A stretch of DNA of 64,000 nucleotides from a virus. This document shows, piece after piece, positions 29,582-49,556 of this stretch. How positions within the stretch are numbered: position 1 is the stretch's first letter; the number at the start of each line of letters is the position of its first letter. Location: the IMG/VR virus record IMGVR_UViG_3300017780_004980, positions 33,767 through 97,766 of that record; one strand, 5' to 3'. Under the pieces are notes generated by a model. The model saw only the letters and a program-made list of their open reading frames with translations. It was not told the DNA's origin and made no database searches. A program made the position numbers and the translations under genes.

Positions 29582-29615
29582 CTCGCATCCTCCATGATGC
29601 CTTAGAGATACTCGT

Positions 29616-29643
29616 ACTTTAGCTCTGGGGGCCGACGGGTCAA
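29616..29643 (-). promoter_or_regulatory. Sigma70-type promoter
   Basis: TTGACC-N16-TAAAGT (GCTAAAGT). Confidence 0.65.
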
Positions 29644-29668
29644 ACTTGAAGGCGCCGGCCCCCGGCTT

Positions 29669-30163: not shown

Positions 30164-30186
30164 TTGACCCTCCTTGGTCTTTCTCT

Positions 30187-30214
30187 ACGGTAACTCTGGT
30201 GCAAGTGGTTGCAA
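30187..30214 (-). promoter_or_regulatory. Sigma70-type promoter whose -35 overlaps the 14-bp repeat
   Basis: TTGCAA-N16-TACCGT; TGCAACCACTTGCA covers the -35 box and part of the spacer. Confidence 0.55.
30200..30213 (+). repeat. 14-bp motif (copy 5, overlapping a promoter)
   Basis: Exact match. Confidence 0.9.
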
Positions 30215-30217
30215 ACT

Positions 30218-30580
30218 TTAGAGCAGCGAGGCGACGTCCTCGTCGATTTGTTTCTGGGTGCGCAGAGCCCGGCCGGTGTAGCCGCAGTCCGCGCAGCCCG
30301 CGCCGCTGCACAGGCCGCATTCGACCTGCTGCTGCCGGTGCTCATATTCGTGGCGGTAGGCGTCCTCGGTCCAGACCTGGTAAATCACCTCGTCATGGAC
30401 CTCCAGCACGTAGTCTTCGTACCGACGGTTCATCTGTCCCAGTGTGAACGGGGCGCCGAGATACCCCATCTCCGCGACCTTCTCGTAGGACAAGCCCAAC
30501 CTTTCGGCTTGATGCCCGGCTTTGTCGAATATCGCGTACCGGTGCGACGTGCTCTGCCCGGGATCACCCGTTCTTGGCAT
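30218..30580 (-). CDS. Hypothetical protein with C-terminal CxxC..CxxC zinc ribbon
   Basis: ECGLCSGAGCADCGYTG; likely start MPRTGD. Confidence 0.65.
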   Translation of the reverse strand: MPRTGDPGQSTSHRYAIFDKAGHQAERLGLSYEKVAEMGYLGAPFTLGQMNRRYEDYVLEVHDEVIYQVWTEDAYRHEYEHRQQQVECGLCSGAGCADCGYTGRALRTQKQIDEDVASLL

Positions 30581-30857
30581 GGAACACCTCGCCACGGTCG
30601 ATCTTGATTTCCAGGGCCGCCTGGAACACCGCGCGGACCTTGCTGGACAGGACCCGGGGACCTTCCGACACCCGGACACCGGGCAGTATTTCAGTCGCCT
30701 TCTCGGGGCCGATTTCGTACTGCTCGCCGGTACTGACCCGGGTCAGGGTAAAGGCTTCGTCGGAAAACATCTCCGTCATCACGAACCGCGCCGGCGTCTC
30801 TCCGGGCAGCGTGATGTACAGGTCTTCCTTTTCCGCCAATGTCAGGGCCAGGGCCAT
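30564..30857 (-). CDS. csrA: CsrA/RsmA-like RNA-binding translational regulator with internal insertion
   Basis: MALALTLAEKEDLYI aligns with CsrA MLILTRRVGETLMI; KVRAVFQAALEIKIDRGEVF aligns with [20 protein letters not shown], keeping the Arg44 equivalent. Confidence 0.6.
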   Translation of the reverse strand: MALALTLAEKEDLYITLPGETPARFVMTEMFSDEAFTLTRVSTGEQYEIGPEKATEILPGVRVSEGPRVLSSKVRAVFQAALEIKIDRGEVFHAKNG

Positions 30858-30905
30858 TATGCGATCCTCATGATCTTGTGGCTGTGCGTCGGTCGAGCCA
30901 CCATA

Positions 30906-32999: not shown

Positions 33000-33023
33000 C
33001 TGATCCTCCATGATCATACGATT

Positions 33024-34147: not shown

Positions 34148-34339
34148 TCAGTCGTCGTCTTCCATGACGCCGTTGTGGTCGACCACCAGGCGCATGATCT
34201 GCGCGTTTGGGTCGCCCCCAAGAAAGCGGACCGTACGCGCTTCCTTGTCCAATTCCAAGAGGTTCGACGGGTAGCGCAGGTCCAGGAATTCGGTGAACAG
34301 GCTGAAATTCGTGTCCGAGGTGAATGACACCAGCATCAT
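34148..34339 (-). CDS. Small hypothetical protein
   Basis: 63 aa, ATGA overlap with the upstream gene. Confidence 0.5.
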   Translation of the reverse strand: MMLVSFTSDTNFSLFTEFLDLRYPSNLLELDKEARTVRFLGGDPNAQIMRLVVDHNGVMEDDD

Positions 34340-37074
34340 TGCACTTGCATGCTGATCAGAACCTTGTGCGTGCGGCCCTGCGCGGTGACGCCGATCACCC
34401 CGATACGCGCGTTGGCGCCGGCCGTACCAGCACTAAGCCAGAAGGTGGTGATGCCGCCGGCAGTGCTTATGTCGCCAAGGACCAAGCCGTCTGACGGCGT
34501 GATGGTCACCGTCAGGATCGTGTCGTCAGACAGCAGGGCTTGCCAGTCGACCTGGTAGTCCAGCACTTCGCTCGAAAACTTCTTCGGCAGGGTGAGCAAG
34601 ATCAGGTCTCCTTTCCGGACTACAGCGTTTCCGGCTCCGGGCCGCAGCATACGCGAAACATAGGGAATAGACAGAGCCCGGTCCTCGCTGAGGAGCGTGA
34701 TCTTTCGGCTGGTGTACGCCAGCGTCAGGCGTCTCTGTCTCGGGGTAACAAGCGGGTCCAGGTAAAAAGCCGATAGGACCAGGGCCCCGAGGGTCGACGC
34801 GGCGGTACCAACAATCTGGACGGCGCCGGCGGCGGCGCTGGCCAAAGAGCCCAGGACGGCGCTGGCTGCCGCCGTGATGGCCAGGGCGCCCGTGGACGCG
34901 CCCGTCAACACACCGAGGGTGGTGCTCGTCGTCCCCGCGATGGGCAGGGTGCCTGACGACAGAACGGTGACCGCGCCGAGGGTGTTGTCGGAGGCGCCGG
35001 TAGCGGCGGGGCCGCCAGTCGCAACCGCCGTAACCGCACCGAGGGTTTGGGTCGCGGCTCCGGAAACAGCCACGGCTGCCGTTGCGGTGGTCGTAAGGGT
35101 TCCGAGCTCCGGGGCCGCCGATCCGGTGAGGGAGATCGCGCCGCTGGCGGTAACCCCGACCGCGCCGAGCGCCGGGGCCGCAGTGCCGGCAACAGCAACG
35201 AGGCCCGCCGATGAGGCGGTGATCGCGCCTAGGGTGCCGTCTAGCTCCCCGAGTGCCGCCTGCCCAGCCGAGGCCGACAGGGTCACCTCGCCGAGGGTGA
35301 GGCTCGCCGCGCCGGCGATGGAGACGGCGCCAGCTCCTGTGGTCGTAACCAGGCCCAGGGTCGGCCCGGCCTCCCCGGCGACGGTCACGGCGCCGGCCGC
35401 CGCTATAGTGGCCGGGGCCAGGGTCGGTGTCGCCGCCCCGATAACGGACACCGCACCAGCGGCCGAAGCCGCCACTGCGCCGAGGGTGAGGCTCGCCGCC
35501 CCTGAAACCGAGACGGCTCCGCTCGAAGACGCCGTGACCGCGCCCAGGTCCGGGGCTGCCGAGCCTCCGACAAGCACCGTGCCTGCCGCCGACGTCCCGA
35601 GAGCGCCCAGCGACGGCGAGGCCGATCCCGTGACAGAAACCGTGCCCGCACCGGTAGCAGCCGCGTCCCCGAGCGTGGCAGACAGGGCCCCGTACGCGAC
35701 TTGCTCTGACGAGGCCTCCAGCGTTACCGCACCGAGGGTGGCATTGACCTCGCCCGCGATGGCCACAACCCCGGTAGCCGAGCTTGTCGCGGCCCCCAGG
35801 GTTGAAGCGACCTCCCCGACGATAGCAACAACGCCAGCAGCGGACGGCGTGACGGCCCCGAGAGTAGCCGCCAGCGTGCCGGTGATTTCCGTGACCGCTT
35901 GCGTGTATCGTAACGCGAAGCCACGGGGAGTCAGAGTGCCATCGTGGTCGCTGATCTTGACCGACAGCAGGTCGCCCGTCGAGACCGCGACGCTGTTGGA
36001 CGTGTCCGCGAATAGTCCGGTGGCGCCCGCCGTTATGGCGATGGTTACAGCCGTATCCGCCCCGGCCTTCCGAAGCGTGATGTTGGACGTGACCGTCGAG
36101 GCGTTGGCGGAAAGGCTGTAGGTCAGGTAGCTGGCCGTGCCGTCAAACGGCGCGGGAGCCTGGACGGTGGACTCCGTGGAGGTAACCGCGAACCGCCCCA
36201 TCACAGGGTTGAACCTGTTGGCCCCCGCCGACGCCGAGGTGGACGCCATGATGGGGGCCGCAATCACCGAAGCCCCCGCCGTGCTCGGCGTAAAGGTCGA
36301 AGAGGCGTTTACAATCGTCAGCGTATCAGCGCCGCTTCCCGTCACCAGGGAGATGCTGAGATTGTCGCCGGCAGCTACGGTGTCACTGTTGCTGGTGTCC
36401 TCAAAGGCGCCCGTGCCCGTGATACTCAGAAGCTGGTTGCCGTTGGCGCTGTTCTTCCGGCTGCGAACAGTGGTCGTCGTCGCCCGCGCCGCCGTGACAT
36501 ACAGCCGAAGATGCGACCACGACCCGGCCACGGGGGTCTTCAGTTGCGCTTCGCTTTCCGTCGCCAGCATAGACTGGAGGCGGCCCCCAAGGGCTATGTA
36601 GCGGGTCGCGCTGGCCGTGGTCAGCGAGACCGTCCCGAAGCACGACAGCGGGCTGACAGATTGACCGGTGCTTTCCAGTTCTGCCGTCAGGGCGTTCAGC
36701 AGGAGCGTGCCAGAGGTGGCGCCGATGGCCAGGGCGTAGCTGTAGGTATCGCCCGCCGTCAGGGAGACGGTGTTGGTCAGGTCCGTGTACGTGCCCGTCG
36801 TCGAAGCGGTGATCGTCACCACCTGCGACGTGGCCGATCCGTTCTTCTGGGTCGTGATGGTCGAGTTCGCCGCGCGGCTGTTGGTCGTCAGTCGGGCGCG
36901 AAGGTTCTGCAACACACAGTCCGACCCGCGATGAACAATAGCCGCATGGGCCTCGTTCGTGTTCGCCGGCTGCGTGGCCGCTACAGAGTTTCCATAGTTG
37001 CCGTAGTATGTGACGCTCGATGCCGGGGAGATACCGGCGCTGTCAGTCGCCCCGACGAACGCACTCTCAGCCAA
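34336..37074 (-). CDS. Putative head/tail fibre protein with 21-aa tandem repeats and C-terminal adaptor-like domain
   Basis: 912 aa: three ~125-aa beta-rich N-terminal repeats, 18 copies of xGxxxxTLGAVTxxAxGxVxx, and a C-terminal K..EVLDYQVDW...TFWLSAG domain. Confidence 0.7.
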   Translation of the reverse strand: MAESAFVGATDSAGISPASSVTYYGNYGNSVAATQPANTNEAHAAIVHRGSDCVLQNLRARLTTNSRAANSTITTQKNGSATSQVVTITASTTGTYTDLTNTVSLTAGDTYSYALAIGATSGTLLLNALTAELESTGQSVSPLSCFGTVSLTTASATRYIALGGRLQSMLATESEAQLKTPVAGSWSHLRLYVTAARATTTTVRSRKNSANGNQLLSITGTGAFEDTSNSDTVAAGDNLSISLVTGSGADTLTIVNASSTFTPSTAGASVIAAPIMASTSASAGANRFNPVMGRFAVTSTESTVQAPAPFDGTASYLTYSLSANASTVTSNITLRKAGADTAVTIAITAGATGLFADTSNSVAVSTGDLLSVKISDHDGTLTPRGFALRYTQAVTEITGTLAATLGAVTPSAAGVVAIVGEVASTLGAATSSATGVVAIAGEVNATLGAVTLEASSEQVAYGALSATLGDAAATGAGTVSVTGSASPSLGALGTSAAGTVLVGGSAAPDLGAVTASSSGAVSVSGAASLTLGAVAASAAGAVSVIGAATPTLAPATIAAAGAVTVAGEAGPTLGLVTTTGAGAVSIAGAASLTLGEVTLSASAGQAALGELDGTLGAITASSAGLVAVAGTAAPALGAVGVTASGAISLTGSAAPELGTLTTTATAAVAVSGAATQTLGAVTAVATGGPAATGASDNTLGAVTVLSSGTLPIAGTTSTTLGVLTGASTGALAITAAASAVLGSLASAAAGAVQIVGTAASTLGALVLSAFYLDPLVTPRQRRLTLAYTSRKITLLSEDRALSIPYVSRMLRPGAGNAVVRKGDLILLTLPKKFSSEVLDYQVDWQALLSDDTILTVTITPSDGLVLGDISTAGGITTFWLSAGTAGANARIGVIGVTAQGRTHKVLISMQVQ
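34762..35883 (-). repeat. About 18 degenerate 63-bp (21-aa) coding tandem repeats
   Basis: Translated periodicity with TLG/SLG/DLG every 21 residues. Confidence 0.85.
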
Positions 37075-37872: not shown

Positions 37873-39756
37873 TCAGCCGCGTTGCTGCTGCTGATAGATC
37901 GTGGGCGTAATCCCGTGCTGGAACCAGAGTTCGGTCCGCATGGTCAGCCCATAAGCGACCCCGGCCATGGCGTCCGAGCAGTCCTTCGACCCCTGCGGCG
38001 GGTGGTCGATCTTGCTTGTCAGCATGTTGCGTTCCAGATGGATCGTCTCGGTCATAGCCACCTCATGCTCAGGGGCCAGGACCCGGCCATCCCCCAGGGC
38101 GGTCTTGAACGTATCGTACGGCAGGGTGTCGATATCCACCGACTTGATCCCCGTCATGAAGCCGTTCTGAGCCAGGATTTGCCGGGTGTCCGCCGACTGG
38201 AAGCTGTCCATGGTCACGTACTTGATCGGCAGGCCGAGGTCGCGCAGCCGCATGAGCATGTCCCGGATACGGCTGAAGACGATCTCGCCGTTCTCCGGCC
38301 GGCGGACCCGCAGGATGAAGTCATAGACGATCTCAGGCAGCATCTCGACAGTGGTCGGGCTACGCTTCATCGGCACGAACCGCTTGATGTACCCGCACGC
38401 CACGCCGGCGGCGTCCCCGGTCAAGGCCAGGTCGAGGTGGACCCATCGCGGGTTCTCCGTGTCCCGGAACAGCTTCGGATGGGTCTGGGCGAACGAGGCC
38501 ACAAAGTCGCAGTCCGGGCGGGACAGGATCGAGGGAACCTTGCCGAAGCAAGCCTTCACCGGTTCCGGGTCCATAATGTACGGGTTGATGGCGTAGGTCG
38601 AGTGGCCGCCGATGTTGCGGATCGCCTTCAGGATATCGTTGCGGAACGAGGGCCTGAACTCCTCCGGCACCCTCAGCACCAGGTGAGCGTCCTTCTCGGG
38701 GATTTTGTCCCCCTCTTTGACCAGGAACGGTTTCCGGGTCGCGTCCCCCAGGAACACGTCGAACCACTTGCCGGTGAAGAAGTGGAGCGGCTTCACGTCC
38801 CAGACCCGCTTGTCGTAGACGTAGATCGTCGTGACGCCCTGCTCCTTGAGCTCCTTGCGCGCCTCGTCGATCTTCCGGTCGGTGAACTCGCCCGGGTAAC
38901 GCTTCGAGGACGCCATGCACAGCATCCCCGCCAGCTTGCCGTTCTTCGAGAAGCGCGACCGGCGACGTTCAGCGATGGTGTCGTACAGCGCCTTGGCCTG
39001 GTCGAAGGTCTCGCTGTCCATGTTCTGCTTCGAATTCTCGACGATGGCCATGTAGTTGACCTCGTCCAGCAGACCGCCAATGACGTTCTGACCGATGGCC
39101 GCCGCCGTCGAGCCAGAGTAGTACCGGCAGCAGATGCGGTTCGGGAAGATCAGCTCCGACGTCCGCTCCCGATCCCACTGGAACTCGTTCTGGAAGTACG
39201 GCGCCGCCGTGATCAGGTTGTACAGGCGCTCGAAGGCGTTCTTCGTCGGGCCGCCGGCCGAGAACGACTGGATGGCGAAGACGATTTCGTCGGTGCTGGC
39301 CAGGCCGAACTCCGCGTGCGGGTTCCGATACCGGGACAGGATGTAAATCTGGTAGGCGATGGTGTAGTTGGCCAGGGTCGTCTTCGCGGACCCGATCCCG
39401 CCGGTCAGCACCGCCTCGACGTAGCGTCCGCTGTTCAGCTCAGAGCCACACTTCAGCACCTCGGGGTAAATCTCGTGGGCCCGGTCCAGATACTCCTTGC
39501 CCGTGACGAACTCCGCGAAAGAGACCGGCAGGACGTTGTCCTTGTAGAGGCTGTACTCCTCCTCGTAGGCGAAGGCGTCCTCCACGGCCTGGGCCAGCCG
39601 GCGCAGCCCTGCCTCCAGGAACCCGCGCTGGTCGACCTGCTTCATGCCTTGGGCGGCCAGCCACACCGACTGCCCCGGAACCCCGAACTCCATCAGGAGT
39701 TCGTGGATTTCAGGCAACGTGAGTTTGGGTGACTTCTTCTTCGTAATCGCCGTCAT
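37873..39756 (-). CDS. terL: Terminase large subunit
   Basis: Walker A GGIGSAKT, Walker B GLLDE, coupling motif ASS, nuclease HLDLA / MDSFQS / KDCSDA; likely start MTAITKK. Confidence 0.9.
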   Translation of the reverse strand: MTAITKKKSPKLTLPEIHELLMEFGVPGQSVWLAAQGMKQVDQRGFLEAGLRRLAQAVEDAFAYEEEYSLYKDNVLPVSFAEFVTGKEYLDRAHEIYPEVLKCGSELNSGRYVEAVLTGGIGSAKTTLANYTIAYQIYILSRYRNPHAEFGLASTDEIVFAIQSFSAGGPTKNAFERLYNLITAAPYFQNEFQWDRERTSELIFPNRICCRYYSGSTAAAIGQNVIGGLLDEVNYMAIVENSKQNMDSETFDQAKALYDTIAERRRSRFSKNGKLAGMLCMASSKRYPGEFTDRKIDEARKELKEQGVTTIYVYDKRVWDVKPLHFFTGKWFDVFLGDATRKPFLVKEGDKIPEKDAHLVLRVPEEFRPSFRNDILKAIRNIGGHSTYAINPYIMDPEPVKACFGKVPSILSRPDCDFVASFAQTHPKLFRDTENPRWVHLDLALTGDAAGVACGYIKRFVPMKRSPTTVEMLPEIVYDFILRVRRPENGEIVFSRIRDMLMRLRDLGLPIKYVTMDSFQSADTRQILAQNGFMTGIKSVDIDTLPYDTFKTALGDGRVLAPEHEVAMTETIHLERNMLTSKIDHPPQGSKDCSDAMAGVAYGLTMRTELWFQHGITPTIYQQQQRG

Positions 39757-40333
39757 CGGCGTCCCCCAGGGCTTCATGGATGCGCTTGGCGGCGCGGGCA
39801 ACGGCGGGGGTGATCTCGATGCGGGCGACGCGCGGGTCGCTCGACGGAGCAACGGCCTCGCGGTAGGTCATCTTCATCTTCGGACGCAGGCCGAGCTTGT
39901 CCAACAGCAGACTGTACTCGGAGTTGGCCTTAAACGCCGCCGCGACGCCGTCGGTGAACTGCTTCGGGATGACCGGCGTGCCCTGTTCCATGAGCTCGTC
40001 GATCTTCTTCTTGCCGTGGTAGCCGACCTCCGCCAGGGACATGGCCATTTCGTGGGCCACGTTCAGCGGGTTGTAGGCCGAGGCCATGCGCCGGACGTCG
40101 GCCAGACCCGCCTTATCCAGCTCCCGCATCAGGTTGGCTTCGACGACCTCCCGCTTGTAGCGGGTGAGCAGCTTCTCGCAGGCGCCGTCCGACTTCTCAG
40201 CCCAGAGCTTCCAGTCGATCTTGATGACCGAGCGCATGCGCTTGGCCCCGGCGCCGGCGGCCATCATCTCGTCGATCTGCTTAACCCGCTCGGGGCCCAG
40301 CGCGATGATGTCGGCAAACCGCCCCTTAGCCAT
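39710..40333 (-). CDS. terS: Probable terminase small subunit
   Basis: 207-aa helical protein immediately upstream of and overlapping terL; call is positional. Confidence 0.55.
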   Translation of the reverse strand: MAKGRFADIIALGPERVKQIDEMMAAGAGAKRMRSVIKIDWKLWAEKSDGACEKLLTRYKREVVEANLMRELDKAGLADVRRMASAYNPLNVAHEMAMSLAEVGYHGKKKIDELMEQGTPVIPKQFTDGVAAAFKANSEYSLLLDKLGLRPKMKMTYREAVAPSSDPRVARIEITPAVARAAKRIHEALGDADDGDYEEEVTQTHVA

Positions 40334-40769
40334 GTGCTCCCGCCCACGTACGCCCGAGTAACAGCTTGCTTACTGTCGCCTGGGTCACCCCATATTCCTC
40401 GGCTAGGTCAGCTTGCCTGATCTTTCCAGGAACGTAGGCCTCTTGTATGGCCAAAACGGCGGCATCCGTCAATTTGCTATTCCCTGCGGCGGCTCCTCTG
40501 GCCGTTCTTCCGCGCACCTGTCGGTCGTCTATGTTTTGCTGATGCGTCCCGTATAGGAGATGAGCGGGGTTCACGCAGCGCGGCTGGTCGCAGGTGTGCC
40601 GAACTTCCTGATCCGGCGGGCACGACCCATGAGCCAGTTCGCAAACGTACCGATGGACGTACATCTGCCGGCCTTTAACTTTGACAAAGCCGTAGACCTC
40701 ACCGGCTCCTGTGAAAATCCAGCAGTCTCCCGCCGGGAACACCTTGTCCATGATCCGATCTGGGATCAC
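40326..40769 (-). CDS. HNH homing endonuclease with C-terminal HTH
   Basis: CWIFTG, HR...VRHTCDQPRCVNPAHL..GT...N, QADLAEEYGVTQATVS. Confidence 0.92.
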   Translation of the reverse strand: MIPDRIMDKVFPAGDCWIFTGAGEVYGFVKVKGRQMYVHRYVCELAHGSCPPDQEVRHTCDQPRCVNPAHLLYGTHQQNIDDRQVRGRTARGAAAGNSKLTDAAVLAIQEAYVPGKIRQADLAEEYGVTQATVSKLLLGRTWAGAHG

Positions 40770-41713
40770 AGGCCCTCCACCTTCTTCAAATTGTCCAAAG
40801 TCGGGGCGACCAGCATGTCCTTGGGCATTTTCACCAGCGGCGTGTTGTCAAACGCGGCTTGCACCAAGGCAGGCTGCTCGCCCTTGGCGATCTCCTGAAT
40901 GACGTACCCAATGACGGCGTCCATGGAGCGGTTCTGCTCGATGCAGGCTTGCCCGATCAAGGTGAGCGCGTCCCACGATTTCTTGTCCGCCAGCCTGAGC
41001 CAGATCGACTGCTGCCCGCCATAGTCCATGATGAGGTACCCATAGGGTAGCGTGTCCCCGTACATCGTGAACATATGGTTCAGTAGCTTGGCCAGGCCGT
41101 CGACCGTCTTGATCTCGGCCGCCGCCTCGCGGAACGTCTGCTGCAAGTCCTTCGGCAAGGTCTTGGCCGACTGCTCGATCAGCTTCTTGAACTCCGCCTC
41201 GTCGGCGAAGCCGAACATATCCTGGATGACGTCTTCGCCGTAGCCCTTGGTCAGGTACTTCTCGTACAGGCCGAAGAACCGCTGCGGGTCCAGCCGGCCC
41301 TTGATGGCGTTGTGCCGCATCAGCTGCACTTCCGCCTCCTCCTCGTTGAAGGCCGGGTCGACGATCACCGTGCAGGGAATGTCCAGTTCTTCGTTGAACT
41401 TGGCGGCTTCGGTACGGTGGTGGCCCCCGATGATGCGGAAGACGACGCCCTCGCCCTGCAAGGCGGCGTAGAAGGCGGCGAGGCTCTCGTCGGTGGGCTC
41501 GGCCCCCAACAGCTTCTTGTGAGCGTCCCAGACCTTCCTGAACAGCTTCAGATCGAACGGCCAGACGAGGACGGCGTCGGTGTGGCCGACCCGCTGCCGG
41601 TTCTCCACCAAGAGATCGAACTCCCGGTCGGTCATCTTGTTCGGGTTGTTCTCGGACGGGATCAGCAGCTTGATCGGCAGCTTGGTCCGCACCGGCTCGT
41701 AGGATTTCGCCAA
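40766..41713 (-). CDS. ParB/sulfiredoxin-like N-terminal domain protein
   Basis: L.PSENNPNKM, RIIGGHHR..AA, HNAIKG motifs; TTG start. Confidence 0.85.
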   Translation of the reverse strand: MAKSYEPVRTKLPIKLLIPSENNPNKMTDREFDLLVENRQRVGHTDAVLVWPFDLKLFRKVWDAHKKLLGAEPTDESLAAFYAALQGEGVVFRIIGGHHRTEAAKFNEELDIPCTVIVDPAFNEEEAEVQLMRHNAIKGRLDPQRFFGLYEKYLTKGYGEDVIQDMFGFADEAEFKKLIEQSAKTLPKDLQQTFREAAAEIKTVDGLAKLLNHMFTMYGDTLPYGYLIMDYGGQQSIWLRLADKKSWDALTLIGQACIEQNRSMDAVIGYVIQEIAKGEQPALVQAAFDNTPLVKMPKDMLVAPTLDNLKKVEGL

Positions 41714-41727
41714 AGCCCCCTCCTTGG

Positions 41728-43212
41728 TCAGGATCGGAGGCGAAGATGCCCCGTCACCGTGCTTGCGTCCTCATAGCCATAGTGCAGTTTCAGGCCGATG
41801 CGAAGGGTATTCCAGGCTTGGCTGAAGGTGATCGACCGCTTCAGCCGGTCCCCGTCCCGCGTCTTGTCGGCCAGCACGCCCATGGCGCCGGTCTTGCCCA
41901 GCCGCTTGACGGTCTCGAACATCGTCTCCTCGCCGGATTTCATCTCCTCGGCCAGCAGCTTCACGGCGGCGTTGTCCTTCAGGACCTGGAGGTCTTCGGT
42001 CTCCTCCATCATGGTCTCGTACCGGAGCAGAGCGTCGTAGAGCTTCGGGTACAGCAAGTCGTCCGCGAACCGCTTGGCGTAGGTGGTCTTGAACCAGCCT
42101 TGCTGCCATTCGACGAACCGGGCGTACTGGCCGGCGTAGTCGTCATAGAGCGCCTTGAACATGCCGTACACGCTCGCCGGCCCGGGGCAGTAGAACGGAT
42201 AGTCAGGCCCGAGCATGCTTTCATGGACCGGCGTGCGGGTCGTGATGACCGGGGTGCCGAGCATCAGCGGCTCGATCAGCGACAGACTGAAGCCGCCGCC
42301 TTTTGGCATGTAGATGAAGGCGTGGAGCTCCGACTTGACGATCTCCCAGAACTGCTCTCGGGGCGGGAACCGGACGTCGACAATGTCCTCGTCGAAGCCC
42401 TTGATGATCGTCGACACCGTGCAGGCGATCAGCTTGACCTGATCCCCGCGCAGGACCCAGGCCTTCTCCATGATCTGGTAGATATCGTCGACGTTGTTCG
42501 CCTTCTCCATCCGGCCGATGTAGGCCAGGCCGAACGGCTGCTCTCCACCCTTCTGGAAGAAGCTGTCCTCCGGCTTGATCCGGTATTCCTCGAACTGGCC
42601 GGTGACCACCGGGGTGATCTTCGGTTCCAGTTGGCGGACCAGCGACGGGGTGAAGTGGTTGCGGGCCTCCCGCAGGATACCGGGCTTCTCATGGTACGAG
42701 CAGACCCAGACGTTGTCGGCCGCCAGGTAGCCGTCGATGGTCCAGCGGTCCTGAACCCCGGGCACCATCTGCGGAACCGTGTCCTTGAAGCTGACCATCG
42801 GCATCACCTCCAGCACCCAGACCTGCTTGGTCCAGTGCCAGCGGCGCTCGCGCGGCGAGGTCATGATCAGGCGCATCAGCGGGGTCAGTCCGGTCCGCAC
42901 GGTCAGCACGACGTCCGCATCCCAGGTCTCGCCGTTGAAGGCCAGGTAGTCCTCCAGTTCGGCGCCGAGCGTGATGTACTCCCGCACCCGGTCCTTGGTG
43001 CTGGTGTTCCGCAGGTACCTGATGTTCGGGTGCTTCGGGTACCAGTCCATGTCGGCCTCTTCGACATAGGACGGGACCACCCAGTAGAAGAACACGTCCT
43101 CGCGCTTCTCATCCAGCAGCACCCGGTCGACGAAGGTCCGGAACATGATCGTCGTCGAGCACTTGCCCGGCGTCGAGGTCAGGATCGGATCGAGCAAGAT
43201 TTTCGTGGTCAT
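41728..43212 (-). CDS. Glycosyltransferase (GT-B fold, GT4-like)
   Basis: YIGRMEKAN and GFSLSLIEPLMLGTPVI nucleotide-sugar-binding motif. Confidence 0.8.
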   Translation of the reverse strand: MTTKILLDPILTSTPGKCSTTIMFRTFVDRVLLDEKREDVFFYWVVPSYVEEADMDWYPKHPNIRYLRNTSTKDRVREYITLGAELEDYLAFNGETWDADVVLTVRTGLTPLMRLIMTSPRERRWHWTKQVWVLEVMPMVSFKDTVPQMVPGVQDRWTIDGYLAADNVWVCSYHEKPGILREARNHFTPSLVRQLEPKITPVVTGQFEEYRIKPEDSFFQKGGEQPFGLAYIGRMEKANNVDDIYQIMEKAWVLRGDQVKLIACTVSTIIKGFDEDIVDVRFPPREQFWEIVKSELHAFIYMPKGGGFSLSLIEPLMLGTPVITTRTPVHESMLGPDYPFYCPGPASVYGMFKALYDDYAGQYARFVEWQQGWFKTTYAKRFADDLLYPKLYDALLRYETMMEETEDLQVLKDNAAVKLLAEEMKSGEETMFETVKRLGKTGAMGVLADKTRDGDRLKRSITFSQAWNTLRIGLKLHYGYEDASTVTGHLRLRS

Positions 43213-43856
43213 GCTTGGGTCGCCCGGAGCAAGAGGAAGCGTTCAGCGTGGGTTCGGTTGACTTGCATCCCCCGCATACGGGTGTGGACTTCGGCGCCTT
43301 TGATCGAAATCAGGCCGGTCGCCAGGTCCAGCCGTTGGGTGGCGTGCAGCATAAGGGCCGCGCCCTTCCGTTCGATATCGGGTTCGATCAGGGCCTCGTA
43401 GCGCCAGCCGAATTCCTGGGGCGGGTGCTGTCCGGGCATCTCGTAGGCCCATAGGTCCGGGCCCTCGGCACGGCGTGCAACCACTTGCAATGCGTCCCAG
43501 AGCGCCGTGTGGTCCTGATTGAACCAGGGCAGGCAGACGTAGACGGCGCTCGGCGCGTGTTGCAACAGCAGGCCGTCGATCCAGTCGGCGACTTCGCTCC
43601 TCGGCACCAGGTCCAGCTTGTTCTCGGCGTCGAACGGCCGCCAGTGCCAGTGCGCTCCCAGCACATGACAAGCGGCCATCTGATCCAGTTCACGGTCTTC
43701 CGGAGAGACCACCAGACCATCCCGGTTTTCGTACTTCGAGGCGCAGGCGACGGCGATGACCACCTCCTGTTTCCTCCGGTGGCACCACTTGGCGATAGTA
43801 CCCCCCATAGCCAGTTCGGCGTCGTCGGCATGGGGGGACAGGACGAGGATGGTCAC
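43209..43856 (-). CDS. PIG-L/LmbE-family N-acetyl-sugar deacetylase
   Basis: LSPHADDAELAMGG, R..D, NQDH, H.TQ, AERF; GTG start overlaps the upstream stop. Confidence 0.9.
   Translation of the reverse strand: MTILVLSPHADDAELAMGGTIAKWCHRRKQEVVIAVACASKYENRDGLVVSPEDRELDQMAACHVLGAHWHWRPFDAENKLDLVPRSEVADWIDGLLLQHAPSAVYVCLPWFNQDHTALWDALQVVARRAEGPDLWAYEMPGQHPPQEFGWRYEALIEPDIERKGAALMLHATQRLDLATGLISIKGAEVHTRMRGMQVNRTHAERFLLLRATQA
43476..43489 (-). repeat. 14-bp motif (copy 7, inside PIG-L gene)
   Basis: Exact match. Confidence 0.9.
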
Positions 43857-44491
43857 AGGTGCTCCAATCGGTAGTCGCGCAGGAAGTCCGCCGGCCGCTC
43901 CTCGCGGGCGATGATCTCCAGGAAGCTGCGACGGTCTGGGTTGTTCATTACATGAACCAACGCCGGGATATGCGCGGTCTCGTCGGCCAGACGATAGTCC
44001 CGCACCGCCGGCCCGCACAAGTACAGCTTGGCGTCCGGGGCGTATAATTGCACCCGGGCCAGGTTCCGCCGGAAGGTCGTGTGCCCGGGCGGGTAGGTCT
44101 TGCATAGCCGGATATACGCCCCGGCGCCAACGAGGCCCTGGATCGTCTGAGCCATGGCCAACCAGACCTTGCTGTACGGCTTGCCCTCGGAGACTTCCAG
44201 CAGGTTGGCGATCTTCTCCAGCCGGGCTCCAAACCTGTTGCGCCGGGACATGAGCAGCTGGCGGATCGTCTTGGCCGCCTTGTCCGTCCCGGTAACCCGG
44301 GCTTCTCCAATGGTCTTCTCTCTGGTCAGACCAACGCCGAATTGACCCTGTGCCGTGATCTCCCCGCGCCCAAGATGATCCTCCTGCCGCAGGGCGACGT
44401 CGAGCATGGCGATGTGCGTGTCGGCAGCGAACACCTTCGACCAGTAGCCGGCATGGCCGAACAGGAAGGGCTGGTGGTCGGAGACGATCAT
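43853..44491 (-). CDS. wbqC: WbqC-like protein (putative aminoacyl/glycyl transferase for amino sugars)
   Basis: N-terminal HQPFLF..GYW.K...AD....LDV and YLCGP...DY, S.LE motifs. Confidence 0.75.
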   Translation of the reverse strand: MIVSDHQPFLFGHAGYWSKVFAADTHIAMLDVALRQEDHLGRGEITAQGQFGVGLTREKTIGEARVTGTDKAAKTIRQLLMSRRNRFGARLEKIANLLEVSEGKPYSKVWLAMAQTIQGLVGAGAYIRLCKTYPPGHTTFRRNLARVQLYAPDAKLYLCGPAVRDYRLADETAHIPALVHVMNNPDRRSFLEIIAREERPADFLRDYRLEHL

Positions 44492-45159
44492 TTTTGGGCC
44501 ACGACGAAAACGGCCTTCTGCTTGGCGTGGCGGAACCAGCTGTTCCCGGTCAGGCGCTCCAGCGCCACCGCCAGCCGTTGCGGGACCAGTTTTGAGTACG
44601 CCCAGGTCAGCAGCCCCGGGCGCTTGTCGGTCTGGTGCATGGTGCCGTGCCAGAGAACTTCGAGGCCCGCCATCTCGACGGCCTTCACCAACCCGGCTTC
44701 GGTCACCGGGTGGACGTGGGTCGGGTCGTCCCAGAAGTAGGCGGAAGTCGTGTGCCAGTCCGGCGCCATGACGACCAGCACGCCGCTGTCGGCAAGCATC
44801 GCGGCCAGCTTCTCGATGAAGCCGACCTGATCCCCGATGTGCTCGATCACCGACTTGCAGAACACCATGTCGGCCTGGCCCATGAGCAGCACCGGGACCT
44901 CGCCGAAGTCCCAGTACCGGAACATATCGGACAAGTGCCCCCTGATCGCCATGCGGGAGCGATCCAGCAGCCAGAGCGTCGATTTCTTCGTGGTCTTGTA
45001 CAGCAGGGCCTCTCCGAAATCCCCGGTGCCGCAGCCGACGTCAAAGATCGTGATGTCGTCGTCGAGCAGGCTCTCCTCCCAGAGGTCCCGCGCCAGTCGC
45101 GCCGGGAAGCCGCTCGGAGCGGCCTGGGTCAGCTCGGTCTTGGCGTAGGCGTCAGACAC
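44488..45159 (-). CDS. Class I SAM-dependent methyltransferase
   Basis: FDVGCGTG, SVIEHI, WDDPTH. Confidence 0.9.
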   Translation of the reverse strand: MSDAYAKTELTQAAPSGFPARLARDLWEESLLDDDITIFDVGCGTGDFGEALLYKTTKKSTLWLLDRSRMAIRGHLSDMFRYWDFGEVPVLLMGQADMVFCKSVIEHIGDQVGFIEKLAAMLADSGVLVVMAPDWHTTSAYFWDDPTHVHPVTEAGLVKAVEMAGLEVLWHGTMHQTDKRPGLLTWAYSKLVPQRLAVALERLTGNSWFRHAKQKAVFVVAQK

Positions 45160-46231
45160 GGTAGTCTCCAGTGTAGGTCGGAACCAGTTCCTTCAAGAGC
45201 CGCAGCGCGGCCTCCCGGTGTCGGAGCGGCACCGCGACCTTGAGCTTGAGCAGGGTCTGCGACAACTCCGGGTCCAGCTGGATCGTGCCGGCCATTACGC
45301 CGGGGATCACCGTGGACGGCTTCGGGGCCTCGTCCGGGTAGAACAGCTCCTCGGACAGCTTTTCGCCCGGTCGGATGCCTATCTCCTTGATGCAGATATC
45401 GACGCCCGGCTCCTTGTCGGCCAGCTTGATCAGCATGGTCGCCAGGTCGATGATCCTGATCGGCTCGCCCATATCCAGGACGAACAGGGATCGGGGCTCG
45501 TAGTCCAGCGACAAGGACCCCAGGACGAGGGTGACCGCGTCGGTCAGCGTCATCATGTAGCGGGTCATGGCGTGGTGGGTGATCGTCACCGGGCCGCCGG
45601 CCGCGATCTGCTCACGGAACAGGGGGACGGCCGACCCCGCCGAGTTCACGACATTGCCGAAGCGCACCACGGAATACTGGGTCGCCGGGTACAGCCGGCT
45701 GTCGCTGTAATGGGCGGTGATCAGTTCGGCCGCGCGCTTGGTCAATCCCAGGATCGAAGACGGGTTCACCGCCTTGTCGGTCGAAATCACCACCACCTTC
45801 TCGGCCTTGTGGTAGCCCGCACAGGCCAGGACATTGTCGGTCCCGTCGATGTTCGTGGTCATCGCCTCCATGACGTTGTGCGCGATCTCCAGCATCGGGA
45901 CGTGCTTGAGCGCCGCTGCGTGCAGGACGATGTGCGGCTGGTATGCCGTGAAGACCTCGTCCAGCGCCTCGTAGTTCCGGATATCGCACAGGATCGTCGT
46001 GCCTCGGCCGTGCAGGGCCTTATGGGCGTGGTACAGACCGACTTCCGAGTGATCGACGAGGATCAGCTTGGCCAGCGAGTGCTCCAGGCGTTTGGCCAGG
46101 GCCCCGCCGATGGAACCGCCGGCGCCCGTGATCATCACCGTCTTGTTGTCGAATTGGGCCAGGTCCAGAGCAATGCTGGACCGGTCGAGCAGGAGGTGGC
46201 CTAGAGCCGCTCCGCGATCAGCTGAAACCAT
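45152..46231 (-). CDS. UDP-GlcNAc 4,6-dehydratase (PglF/CapD/WbpM catalytic domain, SDR); start approximate
   Basis: TGAGGSIG, HAAALKHVP, ISTDKAVNP, TKR, VRFGNV, MTRY, RPGEKL.EEL. Confidence 0.92.
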   Translation of the reverse strand: MVSADRGAALGHLLLDRSSIALDLAQFDNKTVMITGAGGSIGGALAKRLEHSLAKLILVDHSEVGLYHAHKALHGRGTTILCDIRNYEALDEVFTAYQPHIVLHAAALKHVPMLEIAHNVMEAMTTNIDGTDNVLACAGYHKAEKVVVISTDKAVNPSSILGLTKRAAELITAHYSDSRLYPATQYSVVRFGNVVNSAGSAVPLFREQIAAGGPVTITHHAMTRYMMTLTDAVTLVLGSLSLDYEPRSLFVLDMGEPIRIIDLATMLIKLADKEPGVDICIKEIGIRPGEKLSEELFYPDEAPKPSTVIPGVMAGTIQLDPELSQTLLKLKVAVPLRHREAALRLLKELVPTYTGDYRV

Positions 46232-46836
46232 TGGCGAGTATTGTCCCCCAGGAACGAATAGGCCTTTCGGCCGACATAGGTGATGACGATGTTGCGGAAG
46301 CCGGCGGCGTAAACCAGGTCGTGCAGCTGCGTCTCCGACCACATCTGGCGGATCGTTGGATCGCCCTTGTACCCGGAAAGCAGGTTGTCGAGGGCGAGCC
46401 ATTTGTCGTGACGAGGGTTGGCCACCAGCATGCCCAGCTTCCCGCCAGGTTGCAGGGTGTCGCGCATCGACTTGAGTAGCTCCGCCGGATACGCCGTGTG
46501 GGGCAGAGTATGGATGCAGACGACGTGCCCGACGTTTCTCTCTTTGATCGTGACGCCGTCGAAGGCGCATAGCTGTCGGTGCGGGGCCTTCTCCAAGCCC
46601 AGCTGGATGGCCTCCGGGTTGTAATCGACACCATGATACCGAGCCGCCGGGTTGAAGGCCCGCAGCACGTCGTGCAGGGCGCCCTGATTGCAGCCAACGT
46701 CGAGGACTTTCGGACTGCCGGCGATCTTCATGGTCTGGAACAGAGCGGTGGCGGTCCTCCACCATTGACCGCTCGTTGACCACTCGTCGACGGCCTTCGA
46801 ATAGTCCTTCAGATCGCCTTGTTTATGGTCTCGCAT
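46201..46836 (-). CDS. Class I SAM-dependent methyltransferase; start uncertain
   Basis: VLDVGCNQG, GVDYN, HTLPH, LQPGGKL. Confidence 0.88.
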   Translation of the reverse strand: MRDHKQGDLKDYSKAVDEWSTSGQWWRTATALFQTMKIAGSPKVLDVGCNQGALHDVLRAFNPAARYHGVDYNPEAIQLGLEKAPHRQLCAFDGVTIKERNVGHVVCIHTLPHTAYPAELLKSMRDTLQPGGKLGMLVANPRHDKWLALDNLLSGYKGDPTIRQMWSETQLHDLVYAAGFRNIVITYVGRKAYSFLGDNTRQWFQLIAERL

Positions 46837-47867
46837 ATCCTGTCGACCTCCATGTCGGTGAGCCCGGGGTAAATCGGCAGGGACAGCATACAGCCCGATG
46901 CGCGGGTTGCAACCGGCGTGTCCCAGCCGCTGAGAATGTGCGGCTGAAGGGCCGTCAGGTCGGTCAGCAGCGGGTAGTGCTTGGACACCCGGATACCGGC
47001 CGCCCAGAGCGCCGCGACCACCCTGGACCGCATGGTCGTGTCAAGAAACTCGACCACCATCATCGTCAGGCTATGCCCCGCGTGGGGGGCCTGAATAGCT
47101 GCTCCCTGAAGGGCAAGCCCTCGGCTGTACCTATTTCTGATGGCCAGCCTCTGGGTCTTGAACCCGTCCAGCTTCTTCAGCTGCTCCAAACCCATCGCGG
47201 CGGCGATGTCCGTCATGTTCGCCTTGTTGCCCAGCATCTCGACATCGTAGTCCAGCACCGGGCCGGCGGCTTGATCCCGTCCGTGCGCGTCCATGCTGAT
47301 CCCGTGCAGGCGAGACTGGCGAGCGTAGGCCGCGAGATCATCGTCCTGGGTCATCAGGGCGCCGCCCTCGCCGGTGGTCATACCCTTGTTGGCGTAGAAC
47401 GATGTGACCGCGTGATTTCGGTGCCGCCGGGGTCCGTGGTAGCAGGCGCTGTCGTACAGGGCGAAATTGCTGACTCCTTCGACAGGGCGGCCGGCGTAGT
47501 CGGTCGGAACCGAGAAGACGTAGTCCGAACTCGATCCGATGACCATGTTATAGTTGTTCGGGTCCACGTCCTTGATCAGGATTTTGCCCCCGCGCTTGGC
47601 CCACTGGATCGCCAAGGACGAGAAGGTCAGGTTCGGAAAAGCGATGGCCCAGAGATGCGGGTCCCGGGCCTTCGCCCAGTCAAAGAAGATGGCGCCGGCC
47701 ATGGTCGCCGAGTTCGTGGCGATGACGTGCTTCCACCCCCACCGCTTCTCAAGGGCTTGCTCGAACTCCCGCACGACAGGCCCGTTGGTCAGCCAGCCTG
47801 ACTTCAGGACCCGGGCAACGGCTTCCGCCTCTTCGATGCCGACGGACGGCTTGGAGATCGGGATCAT
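46809..47867 (-). CDS. DegT/DnrJ/EryC1/StrS PLP-dependent nucleotide-sugar aminotransferase
   Basis: SGWLTNGP, NSATMA, DSAC, SFYANKGMTTGEGG (PLP Lys), LSLPIYP. Confidence 0.93.
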   Translation of the reverse strand: MIPISKPSVGIEEAEAVARVLKSGWLTNGPVVREFEQALEKRWGWKHVIATNSATMAGAIFFDWAKARDPHLWAIAFPNLTFSSLAIQWAKRGGKILIKDVDPNNYNMVIGSSSDYVFSVPTDYAGRPVEGVSNFALYDSACYHGPRRHRNHAVTSFYANKGMTTGEGGALMTQDDDLAAYARQSRLHGISMDAHGRDQAAGPVLDYDVEMLGNKANMTDIAAAMGLEQLKKLDGFKTQRLAIRNRYSRGLALQGAAIQAPHAGHSLTMMVVEFLDTTMRSRVVAALWAAGIRVSKHYPLLTDLTALQPHILSGWDTPVATRASGCMLSLPIYPGLTDMEVDRICETINKAI

Positions 47868-48239
47868 CTAGTCCTCCTTGACGTACGCAATATCGAATTT
47901 GACCCTGACCGACGACCCGTCCTTGAGGTACGCCAAGGTCGACTTGAACAAGCCAAGCACGTTGTTCTGGCCCGCCGGCGGGGGGCTGCGCAGGGCCTCC
48001 AGCATTTTCGGCGCCAATCGGGACGCCAGCAGGCCGGGCCGCACGGCAATCTCGGGCTCCCATTCCAGGACGAATGTGAAGGTCTCGGCCGCCAGGAGCA
48101 GGTCGGCGCCGTGCGTGCTCAGACGGGGCACTTTGCGCAGCGGGGTGTGCATAGGCACCAGCCGCCAGTCCGCGAACTGCGGGCTTGCGGTAATGGTGCG
48201 CAGGAACCCGGACCATTCAATTTCTGTCAGCTTTCTCAC
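47868..48239 (-). CDS. Hypothetical protein
   Basis: 123 aa, coupled to neighbours. Confidence 0.6.
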   Translation of the reverse strand: MRKLTEIEWSGFLRTITASPQFADWRLVPMHTPLRKVPRLSTHGADLLLAAETFTFVLEWEPEIAVRPGLLASRLAPKMLEALRSPPPAGQNNVLGLFKSTLAYLKDGSSVRVKFDIAYVKED

Positions 48240-49504
48240 AGGCTCAGTACCTTCTTGCGGGCCTTGATCAGCTGTCGAAGGTCCCGCGCCACGTCATGGA
48301 TCAGGCCGGTGACCTGGTCCGGTTCAAGCTGGTAGTTGTCGAAGAAATACTGGTTCCGGAAGCCCTTGAAGGCCGCGTCGGAGTTGTCGTAGTGCAGGCG
48401 TGGTCCGAGCAGGCCGACCTCCGCGTAGAAAAGGGCCTCCTTGACCGCGCCGGTGAAGGTTGCAAGTGGTTGCAAGGCGTGCTCCGCCATGGCCGGCGAG
48501 GCCTTGAGCCAGTAACCGATGGCCTTGCGCCCGTAGTGGGTATGCTGGTCAACCGCAGCGGCCAGCAGGAAGTCCGCGTTGGCGCCCAGATGCACGAAGG
48601 CCGCGATCTCGTCCGGGTTCCCGGGGATCATGGTCGGGTGGTACGGATCGAGGTCCGCCGAGGCTTTAGTGGCCTGGCACAGGCGCTCCCACACCAACGG
48701 CACCGGGACGTTCAGGCCGTAGCCGGTCGCCGTCCGCGTCCAGTGGAACAGGTAGCTGATCAAGCCCGGCATCCGCATCACCTCGATCAGGGTCTCGCGG
48801 TGCTCGGCGGTCAGGCCGTCCGTGTACTTTTTGCCCTCGATGATCAGCTCGCGGGGGTAGAAGTTCCATAGCAGGCCCATCCGCTCGTTGAACGGGTTGC
48901 CGTCGTCGGCGATCCTGCTGATGATCTCCACCGGGTCCCGGCCGATGCTGGCCTCGTAGACCTGCTGGATCGGGTTGCCGTCGGCCAGCGAGCTCACGAA
49001 GGGGTCCGTCAAGTCCCGCGACTTCGGCATGTCGGGCCGGCACATCTGCGTCAGGAGCCACGACAGCAGTTTCGGGCCCAGCTTGTTCCGGGTGGTCTTC
49101 GACCGGGTGGCGTAGACGGCGATGGCCGTCAGGTAGGGGTCGCCGAAAGCAATGTCCTCGGCGGCGATGACCGACAGCCGGGTCCACATCTTGTCCTCGA
49201 ACTCGTGCTCGATCAGCCAGTTGGCCGACCGCCAGGCCTGCTTGAAGTTGCCGCGCCGGATGGCCTTCTGCATGTTCGAGGTGTGCAGCCAGCGGTCACC
49301 GAAAGACGGAATGTTCGTCGTCAGGGTGTGTTCGTGGTGCGCCAGGTCCGCCTTGATGAACTCGTACAAGCCCTGCTCGACCTCGGCGGCAGACGCCGGC
49401 CGCAGGTGGTAGTCGAAGGTCAGCCCGTGGTCGTGGGCCCGCTGCACCGTGTCGAGAAACAGGAAATCATGCACCTGATCGGCGGGATACTGGCTTTGGT
49501 ACAT
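48236..49504 (-). CDS. Protein with MgsA/RarA C-terminal-like helical domain, no ATPase
   Basis: SNMQKAIRRG...W.RL.VIAAEDI..GDP resembles the RarA SAxxKSxRGS..RRL...ASEDIG.ADP segment; no Walker A. Confidence 0.55.
   Translation of the reverse strand: MYQSQYPADQVHDFLFLDTVQRAHDHGLTFDYHLRPASAAEVEQGLYEFIKADLAHHEHTLTTNIPSFGDRWLHTSNMQKAIRRGNFKQAWRSANWLIEHEFEDKMWTRLSVIAAEDIAFGDPYLTAIAVYATRSKTTRNKLGPKLLSWLLTQMCRPDMPKSRDLTDPFVSSLADGNPIQQVYEASIGRDPVEIISRIADDGNPFNERMGLLWNFYPRELIIEGKKYTDGLTAEHRETLIEVMRMPGLISYLFHWTRTATGYGLNVPVPLVWERLCQATKASADLDPYHPTMIPGNPDEIAAFVHLGANADFLLAAAVDQHTHYGRKAIGYWLKASPAMAEHALQPLATFTGAVKEALFYAEVGLLGPRLHYDNSDAAFKGFRNQYFFDNYQLEPDQVTGLIHDVARDLRQLIKARKKVLSL
48461..48474 (+). repeat. 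14-bp motif (copy 8, inside 422-aa gene)
   Basis: Exact match. Confidence 0.9.
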
Positions 49505-49528: not shown

Positions 49529-49556
49529 ACTCTATCTGGTGGGTCGGGTAGGTCAA
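49529..49556 (-). promoter_or_regulatory. Sigma70-type promoter
   Basis: TTGACC-N16-TAGAGT; heads the sugar/terminase transcription unit. Confidence 0.65.

Follow-up and report, generated by a model that had tools for sequence, protein, structure and literature searches.

The 64,000-nt stretch of DNA analysed here (the window) comprises bases 33767-97766 of a complete 97,766-bp freshwater phage genome in IMG/VR (record IMGVR_UViG_3300017780_004980) and carries, just ahead of its terminase genes, an operon that appears to make and transfer an amino sugar. We find that the core of this operon, a glycosyltransferase (GT) of ~495 amino acids (aa) and a ParB/Noc-fold protein, usually accompanied by a RarA-C-like protein and placed just ahead of terS/terL, is, as judged from gene content and predicted folds, a phage-specific module. 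We hypothesize that it attaches a cationic amino sugar to phage DNA with the help of the ParB-like protein, a reading to which we give even weight for and against. We prefer DNA as the acceptor because of the obligate pairing with a ParB/Noc-type protein, the recurring RarA-C-like protein, the position before terS/terL and the nucleotide-pool enzymes encoded nearby in relatives. The first-pass annotation of this sequence had proposed that the sugar is attached to DNA bases or to virion proteins. A DNA target has since gained from the GT-ParB pairing, the phage-only distribution, the operon context, the restriction-resistant DNA of relatives and a published link of ParB-like proteins, GTs and terminases to phage DNA hypermodification, but no acceptor-forming enzyme was found in this genome or in related ones.

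All 15 IMG/VR loci compared, and one further contig from a metagenome-assembled genome (MAG), carry both the GT and the ParB-like subfamily. In 14 of the 15 the ParB-like gene lies at most ~2.5 kb downstream of the GT, and in the other, rearranged locus (L006) it lies ~5 kb upstream. These loci were obtained with an alignment query, a scan of IMG/VR with the single GT sequence having given zero matches; their GC content is 47-68%, and contigs of 92-101 kb are frequent among them. Among GenBank phages, tblastn with the ParB-like protein returned 19 records, and the 12 records returned with the GT all fall within those 19. One-by-one inspection of RcTiptonus, Agrobacterium phage JP1 and Arthrobacter phage Kitkat, by annotation or with the GT profile, placed a GT of ~490-530 aa 0-2 genes upstream of ParB; KellEzio and DanielleIgnace were left out of this check, and the GT of BeatusComedenti is known from structural matches. 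The paired phages thus span proteobacterial ~95-kb siphophages, the RcF/JP1 group and the Arthrobacter Kelleziovirus, and phages with the GT family infect Stenotrophomonas, Rhizobium, Rhodobacter, Vibrio, Agrobacterium and Arthrobacter. Neither query matched ~330 others of the 351 terL-related records, including all Vibrio phages but KarBoss. Searched for among 1.84 billion cluster representatives, the GT family itself comprises 156 clusters (E ≤ 1e-30; most members of 470-520 aa, many others fragments), and its sole match in representative genomes of 185,579 species was a phage contig binned into a MAG.

The sugar genes around this pair vary. Some relatives have a dehydratase, a DegT aminotransferase and methyltransferases, one (L011) has a uronic-type set of two short-chain dehydrogenase/reductase (SDR) enzymes and a UDP-sugar dehydrogenase, and three (L002, L009 and L012) have PIG-L alone, with or without a WbqC-like gene; no donor genes were found within the stretches examined of RcTiptonus, JP1 and Kitkat. 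PIG-L is the most frequent companion of the GT, at 7 loci. A gene of the DCD/dUTPase family stands between GT and ParB in three relatives (L011 11494-13779, L002 3627-4082 and L014 11662-12309), in L011 accompanied by the UDP-sugar dehydrogenase, and in one relative a deoxynucleoside monophosphate kinase is encoded near the module. Across the genomes compared, gene content indicates that the GT-ParB pairing is obligate and that the sugar genes around it are exchangeable. Two further observations concern these loci. A 345-aa protein family without a Pfam match is common to four of them, and Kitkat (L025, 2019-9666) encodes two GT paralogues, gp88 and gp93, together with gp80, which resembles the first gene of our operon (g422) and is annotated as an AAA-ATPase, and the ParB-like gp95.

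The nearest cultured phages are Stenotrophomonas phages Summit, DLP5 and DLP3, Rhizobium phages RHph_TM16 and Y1_11 and Rhodobacter phage RcZahn (44-48% identity in terL, 40-47% in the ParB-like protein). Their annotated order runs deacetylase, dehydratase, aminotransferase, methyltransferase, GT, ParB-like, terS, terL, PPDK-like dikinase and phosphatases. Because the same cluster is thus already annotated in published phages (DLP3, DLP5, Summit, RcZahn and RHph_TM16), the earlier description of the system as new was overstated. A megablast search of the cluster against GenBank phages gave zero matches.

The ParB-like protein has no Pfam match, and PF02195 (ParB_N) does not reach it. However, a profile built from eleven orthologues matched Noc and ParB structures with E-values of 3.5e-10 to 3e-7 over positions 13-193, and Noc, ParB and KorB are the top Foldseek matches. 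The NPN and GGHHR motifs are invariant, in keeping with an N-terminal ParB/Srx nucleotide-binding domain and its GxxR-type motif. The alignment to Noc reaches the DNA-binding region; the middle region of the model is of low confidence, with a predicted local distance difference test score (pLDDT) of 46-67. Together, profile and model confirm the predicted ParB-CTPase fold. A search for ParB fusions returned one intein-bearing homologue and zero GT-ParB fusions; this homologue, P0205, is a metagenomic protein of 638 aa with Hint and LAGLIDADG domains. Published work connects such proteins to DNA modification. ParB-like proteins activate a subclass of phage thymine dioxygenases on double-stranded DNA (O'Toole et al. 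2026, PMC13229309), and the commonest neighbours in thymine dioxygenase clusters are GTs (31%), ParBs (27%), terminases (19%) and endonucleases (17%) (PMC13229309). In addition, phage ParB folds are often fused to DNA methyltransferases (2025 survey, PMC12704722).

The genome also contains a repeated site with which the ParB-like protein might interact. The motif TTGCAA-N4-TTGCAA is present in 24 copies genome-wide (≤1 mismatch), and the specific sequence TGCAAGTGGTTGCA has 11 exact copies in the window (between 9848 and 59376) against a chance expectation of 0.02, two of them within the operon. In relatives (L001-L026) the half-sites are kept and the central 4-mers differ. At least nine relatives carry one copy ~130 bp ahead of the stop codon of the ParB-like gene, where it encodes LQLIA, and this copy uses TTG and ATT codons even at a locus of 68% GC. 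The motif is therefore a candidate parS, resembling parS sites located inside parB, and it may equally belong to another regulator, as an operator.

The GT scores below the Pfam threshold for Glycos_transf_1 (21.5 vs a cut-off of 26.4). Its AlphaFold2 model (pLDDT 89) has a clear GT-B/GT4-like fold with a helical C-terminal extension of ~130 aa, and Foldseek gave a probability of 1.0 to many GT4 enzymes, the top solved matches being SenB, MshA, BshA, GlgM and LmbT. Residues E314, R234 and K213 are invariant. Among viral proteins, the top structural matches are to GTs over their full length, such as those of Arthrobacter phages Kitkat and BeatusComedenti (template modelling score 0.70). A resemblance to small-molecule enzymes has precedent among DNA-modifying GTs, as proven phage DNA GT-B enzymes likewise resemble BshA, MshA and PglH (10.1101/2023.12.21.572611), and phage GT-A and GT-B enzymes place diverse glycans on 5-hydroxymethylcytosine (5hmC) (2023 preprint, 10.1101/2023.12.21.572611).

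Gene identities throughout were assigned by Pfam, NCBIfam, PHROG and fold searches. The eight genes that the first-pass annotation had named (DegT aminotransferase, two methyltransferases, 4,6-dehydratase, WbqC-like protein, PIG-L deacetylase, GT and ParB-like protein) were all recovered on the minus strand at the positions listed in Table 1, followed by the HNH gene, the terS candidate and terL. Its reasoning that dehydratase and DegT protein together turn UDP-N-acetylhexosamine (UDP-HexNAc) into a 4-amino-4,6-dideoxy-HexNAc is sound. The dehydratase, whose start codon is either 46231 or 46138, is a 4,6-dehydratase as proposed; from its sequence it is of the short soluble PseB/FlaA1 type rather than the long membrane PglF/CapD type. 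Its top NCBIfam models are PseB (E 2e-47) and then FnlA (E 2e-39), both far under the equivalog cut-offs; the inverting PseB equivalog TIGR03589 scores 162 bits vs a cut-off of 408, and thus the stereochemistry of the sugar cannot be read from these scores. The DegT protein similarly has PseC as its top NCBIfam model (E 2e-49, 169 bits vs an equivalog cut-off of 423). Of the bacillosamine-type sugar that had been suggested, the 4-amino-4,6-dideoxy part is therefore retained, and the hidden Markov model scores do not discriminate between bacillosamine and the L-altro series.

The WbqC-like protein itself falls under the PF08889 cut-off, and its BLAST-linked homologues in relatives score E 1e-29 and 5e-19. 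Its profile found no relative among solved structures, and a literature search on WbqC yielded nothing on function. We therefore dropped the interpretation of the product as an N-glycyl sugar, and the "glycylated" sugar of the first-pass annotation is not supported. The proposed deacetylation retains its gene, a PIG-L protein with BshB1 as the top NCBIfam model, but its timing would change. Enzymes of this family (PIG-L, MshB, BshB and the aminoglycoside deacetylases) normally act on the glycoconjugate after transfer. Taken together with the status of PIG-L as the commonest GT companion, this suggests transfer of a HexNAc-type sugar, after which the amine would be unmasked on the product.

From these assignments we propose the following pathway. 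The PseB-like dehydratase and the PseC-like aminotransferase would convert host UDP-HexNAc into UDP-4-amino-4,6-dideoxy-HexNAc, and one or both methyltransferases may methylate the sugar. The GT would then move it onto the acceptor, and PIG-L, in the manner of MshB, BshB and PIG-L enzymes elsewhere, would strip the 2-N-acetyl group from the conjugate to leave a cationic diamino sugar, which the WbqC-like protein may decorate further. The likeliest acceptor would be the phage's own replicated DNA, prior to packaging. By analogy to the ParB-dependent phage thymine dioxygenases, the ParB-like protein could load on the DNA and recruit or activate the GT. Within this pathway we infer the order of the steps, the configuration of the sugar, what ParB does and that DNA is the target. 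A cationic product would resemble other charge-neutralising DNA hypermodifications.

Several observations weigh against DNA as the acceptor. In six-frame searches we found no ThyA (PF00303), TET/JBP (PF12851), ThyX or TGT in the complete genome, which bears out the earlier remark that the window lacks a hydroxymethylase or TET gene and extends it to the whole genome. Neither ThyA nor TET/JBP was found in ~20 related complete or near-complete genomes searched in the same way. The characterised glycosylation routes all begin with a ThyA homologue or a 5mYOX (10.1101/2023.12.21.572611, 10.1101/2025.06.16.659550, PMC8256090). Because ThyA/TET-type genes are absent, there is no known route to an acceptor hydroxyl on the base, which we regard as the chief objection and a serious one. 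A Pfam inventory of the other large open reading frames (ORFs) listed replication, recombination, structural and lysis genes, two DSP phosphatases and a PPDK-like dikinase, with no DNA methyltransferase and no further base-modifying enzyme. T4 AGT/BGT, to which the first-pass annotation had suggested comparing the GT, are not among the PDB matches that Foldseek listed; the closest solved folds use small-molecule acceptors. Both the GT and the ParB-like protein are mostly acidic. Finally, Stenotrophomonas phage DLP3 was sequenced on Nextera and PacBio, and the parts of its description available to us mention no difficulty.

The same relatives provide observations on the DNA itself. The DNA of DLP3 resisted 15/15 restriction enzymes, and the authors suspected modified DNA (PMC7326821). 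The DNA of DLP5 is also restriction-resistant, as is that of unrelated phages from the same laboratory (PMC8228603); because of these, the resistance is not specific and we take it as weak to moderate evidence. A paper on glycosylated 5-hydroxycytosine was set aside, as it concerns an Acinetobacter phage also named DLP3 and not the Stenotrophomonas relative.

It is possible, although we think it unlikely, that the module provides a third, self-contained route to glycosylated phage DNA, one with no need for a pre-hydroxylated pyrimidine. A ParB-like clamp would load at the dispersed TTGCAA-N4-TTGCAA sites and bring in the GT, which would join a HexNAc-type sugar directly either to the backbone or to an exocyclic amine or ring nitrogen of a canonical base, and PIG-L would unmask the amine, producing a cationic glyco-DNA whose sugar varies among related phages.

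We also considered that the GT might glycosylate a phage protein, either of the virion, as for the capsid and tail tube of mycobacteriophages, or one that takes part in packaging or is bound to DNA, for example ParB itself, with the sugar genes diversifying the virion surface. The operon indeed runs directly into late packaging genes, actinophage GTs are the nearest viral structural matches, and potential acceptors are present in a 912-aa Ala/Thr/Ser/Gly-rich fibre-like protein encoded three genes past terL and in the Ser/Thr-rich tract of a 2052-aa fibre. The 912-aa protein is the only strongly Ser/Thr-rich gene product near the operon; however, none of 15 relatives with the GT-ParB pair encodes a homologue, so that it is probably a lineage-specific insertion and we rejected it as a conserved acceptor. 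Furthermore, a glycan on the virion gives no rationale for strict pairing with a ParB fold, the module is located among DNA-metabolism rather than morphogenesis genes, and the published DLP3 data give 92% coverage of the major capsid protein by unmodified peptides. Those particle preparations were analysed without glycan searches, and the dehydratase gp97, which lysates contained in abundance, was detected in them (PMC7326821). On balance, we consider a protein target unlikely. Another possible target is the host envelope (lipopolysaccharide (LPS) core, O-antigen, pilin or flagellin), which the product would alter to exclude superinfection or to bring about lysogenic conversion. We consider this highly improbable, even though DLP3 and DLP5 are temperate phages that cause lysogenic conversion, and conversion of LPS is what the DLP3 authors preferred for the GT (PMC7326821). 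The GT does match the RfaB/GT4 family, and sugars of the pseudaminic acid/bacillosamine type are typical of surface glycans. In contrast, the GT family is conserved over phages of six genera at loci of 47-68% GC and is absent from bacterial polysaccharide loci in the 185,579 species genomes; an acceptor that stays constant across six unrelated host genera, together with that absence, argues against host surface glycans. Rather than forming a moron with its own signals, the genes are coupled in translation to those for lytic packaging. We found no Pfam family for a flippase, polymerase, initiating transferase or membrane Gtr among ORFs of at least 140 aa, and a hydropathy scan gave no polytopic membrane protein, in agreement with the first-pass annotation, which had noted no flippase, polymerase or membrane GT.

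The mycothiol, bacillithiol and aminoglycoside (paromamine) pathways start with a GT4 enzyme followed by a PIG-L deacetylase, and the module could in principle make a small-molecule glycoside, with the ParB/Srx-fold protein acting as a kinase like SerK or SbnI. The top solved folds SenB, MshA, BshA and LmbT all have small-molecule acceptors, BshB1 is the best NCBIfam model for PIG-L, and the ParB profile shows weak similarity to SerK and SbnI (E 0.02-0.4). However, the ParB-like protein matches Noc, ParB and KorB far better (E 3.5e-10), with an alignment that enters their DNA-binding region, no genes for synthesis of a cyclitol or thiol acceptor were found, and the position before terminase and the RarA-C-like partner would be left unexplained. 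We therefore give a small-molecule product very little chance, and continue to favour glycosylation of phage DNA.

The genome has a 123-bp terminal repeat and 63% GC, and every gene is on the minus strand. The operon order is g422, g123, DegT, methyltransferase 1, dehydratase, methyltransferase 2, WbqC-like, PIG-L, GT, ParB-like, HNH, terS and terL (Table 1), with junctions that overlap by 4-31 nt or leave gaps of ≤14 nt. Its RarA-C-like, HNH, terS and terL members are proteins of DNA transactions, a point in favour of the DNA reading. The eight-gene cluster described earlier therefore stands as a unit but is not where the operon starts, since g422 and g123 upstream belong to the same coupled block, which begins at 49504. 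Promoter-like sites across the region are not above chance, and only the position of the candidate ahead of g422 is suggestive.

Table 1 Operon genes and associated features, with positions in the window
Feature	Position	Strand	Basis
Sigma-70-like promoter candidate TTGACC-16-TAGAGT	49529..49556	-	within 56-nt gap ahead of g422
g422, RarA/MgsA C-terminal-like helical protein, first operon gene	48236-49504	-	profile vs PDB 2qw6/2r9g/3pvs, E 5e-10
TTGCAA-N4-TTGCAA copy inside g422	48460..48475	.	site search
g123, 123-aa protein coupled to g422 and DegT	47868-48239	-	no family match
DegT/PseC-like pyridoxal phosphate-dependent sugar aminotransferase	46809-47867	-	PF01041, E 7e-51, 174 bits
Class I S-adenosylmethionine (SAM) methyltransferase 1	46201-46836	-	Methyltransf_23, E 8e-16
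UDP-HexNAc 4,6-dehydratase (PseB/FlaA1/FnlA-like)	~45152-46231	-	Polysacc_synt_2 PF02719, E 1e-91, 307 bits vs cut-off 20
Class I SAM methyltransferase 2	44488-45159	-	Methyltransf_23, E 9e-13
WbqC-like protein	43853-44491	-	PF08889, E 2e-3, 18.3 bits vs cut-off 21.3
TTGCAA-N4-TTGCAA copy inside PIG-L gene	43475..43490	.	site search
PIG-L/LmbE-family de-N-acetylase	43209-43856	-	PF02585, 38.4 bits vs cut-off 28.2
494-aa GT-B (GT4-like) glycosyltransferase, signature gene of the module	41728-43212	-	weak Glycos_transf_1 match and fold
ParB/Noc-type CTPase-fold protein (GGHHR motif)	40766-41713	-	PHROG 26387, E 1e-68
HNH_3 endonuclease with helix-turn-helix, between ParB-like gene and terS	40326-40769	-	HNH_3, E 6e-11
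Small terminase candidate	39710-40333	-	position and weak similarity to gene preceding terL in relatives
Large terminase	37873-39852	-	48% identity to terL of Summit, DLP5, DLP3
912-aa Ala/Thr/Ser/Gly-rich repetitive fibre-like ORF with C-terminal Gp77 fibre-tail adaptor domain	34336-37074	-	three genes after terL, before PPDK-like gene

Neither g422 nor g123 gave a Pfam, NCBIfam or PHROG match even at E 5. The similarity of g422 to the RarA C-terminal region is not accompanied by an AAA+ module. An Atlas search with g422 returned unnamed clusters only and a word-indexed homologue search one relative, yet homologues stand ahead of the sugar genes in L006, L009, L011, L012, L014, L016, L020, L021 and L024, and as gp80 in Kitkat. 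At the other end of the operon, the HNH gene is not matched at the same position in relatives (one weak match lies elsewhere, in L015), so it is probably a mobile, homing-type insertion between ParB and terS. The small terminase candidate has no family match.

Further genes may bear on the system. In the window at 26767-33017 (minus strand), a PPDK-like dikinase (ATP-grasp and phospho-His domain) and two DSP-type phosphatases flank proteins of 385 and 304 aa; the dikinase comes after terL in nearly all relatives and may be tied to the sugar module. Beyond the window, at 7167-7844 of the genome (minus strand), is a gene for a 225-aa protein with a GmrSD_N/DUF262 domain of the ParB superfamily (E 5e-18). 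This domain is part of type IV enzymes directed against glycosylated DNA.

If DNA is the target, the module would represent a widespread phage DNA glycosylation system, with a GT family of ~150-300 clusters at 50% identity in phages of at least six host genera. It would dispense with the ThyA or TET/JBP step on which every characterised pathway depends, adding a new acceptor chemistry, and would place on DNA amino-dideoxy sugars that have not yet been described there. It would also give ParB-fold proteins a second role as partners of DNA-modifying enzymes and would explain the restriction-resistant DNA of DLP3 and DLP5, phages considered for therapy. Should the sugar instead go to a protein or to the host envelope, one would still have to explain why the GT is obligately partnered with ParB. 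Cultured phages bearing the module are available both with the sugar pathway (DLP3, DLP5, Summit, RcZahn and RHph_TM16) and, in the stretches examined, without it (RcTiptonus, JP1 and Kitkat).

The closest known system by gene order is that of the Delepquintavirus phages DLP3, DLP5 and Summit and of RHph_TM16, Y1_11 and RcZahn, where the sugar, GT, ParB-like, terS, terL and PPDK-like genes are syntenic to ours. Those phages have a WcaG/GalE-like SDR dehydratase and one methyltransferase, whereas the phage studied here combines a dehydratase of the PseB type with two methyltransferases and a WbqC-like protein. The donor genes are similar to the early pseudaminic acid and bacillosamine pathways (PseB/PseC and PglF/PglE), which also use a Polysacc_synt_2 4,6-dehydratase and a DegT aminotransferase on UDP-GlcNAc. 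However, the scores here are far under the equivalog cut-offs, and in place of PseH, PseG, PseI and PseF or PglD we find methyltransferases, PIG-L and the WbqC-like protein. The GT4-like fold and PIG-L deacetylase recall the first two steps of mycothiol and bacillithiol synthesis (MshA/BshA and MshB/BshB), implying HexNAc transfer and then de-N-acetylation, but our phage lacks a ligase or acetyltransferase for the subsequent steps and carries the two genes in a packaging operon. Glycosylation of 5hmC, 5-hydroxymethyluracil and 5-hydroxycytosine (T4 AGT/BGT; Burke et al. 2021, PMC8256090) shares with our module a phage GT-B and sugar-nucleotide enzymes, glycans that differ among related phages, and a location near DNA-metabolism and packaging genes. 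In contrast, the donors there are hexose, HexNAc, hexuronic acid, Kdo, heptose and arabinose, with no 4-amino-4,6-dideoxy sugar, the ThyA homologue or 5mYOX required there has no counterpart here, and the T4 enzymes are not among the listed fold matches of our GT. The ParB-dependent 5mYOX clusters similarly pair a ParB-CTPase-fold protein with a DNA-modifying enzyme, which there acts post-replicatively, and GTs, terminases, endonucleases, sugar epimerases and O-methyltransferases are frequent neighbours (PMC13229309). Neither our phage nor the ~20 relatives encode a 5mYOX by the six-frame PF12851 search, and here the invariant partner of the ParB-like protein is instead the GT.

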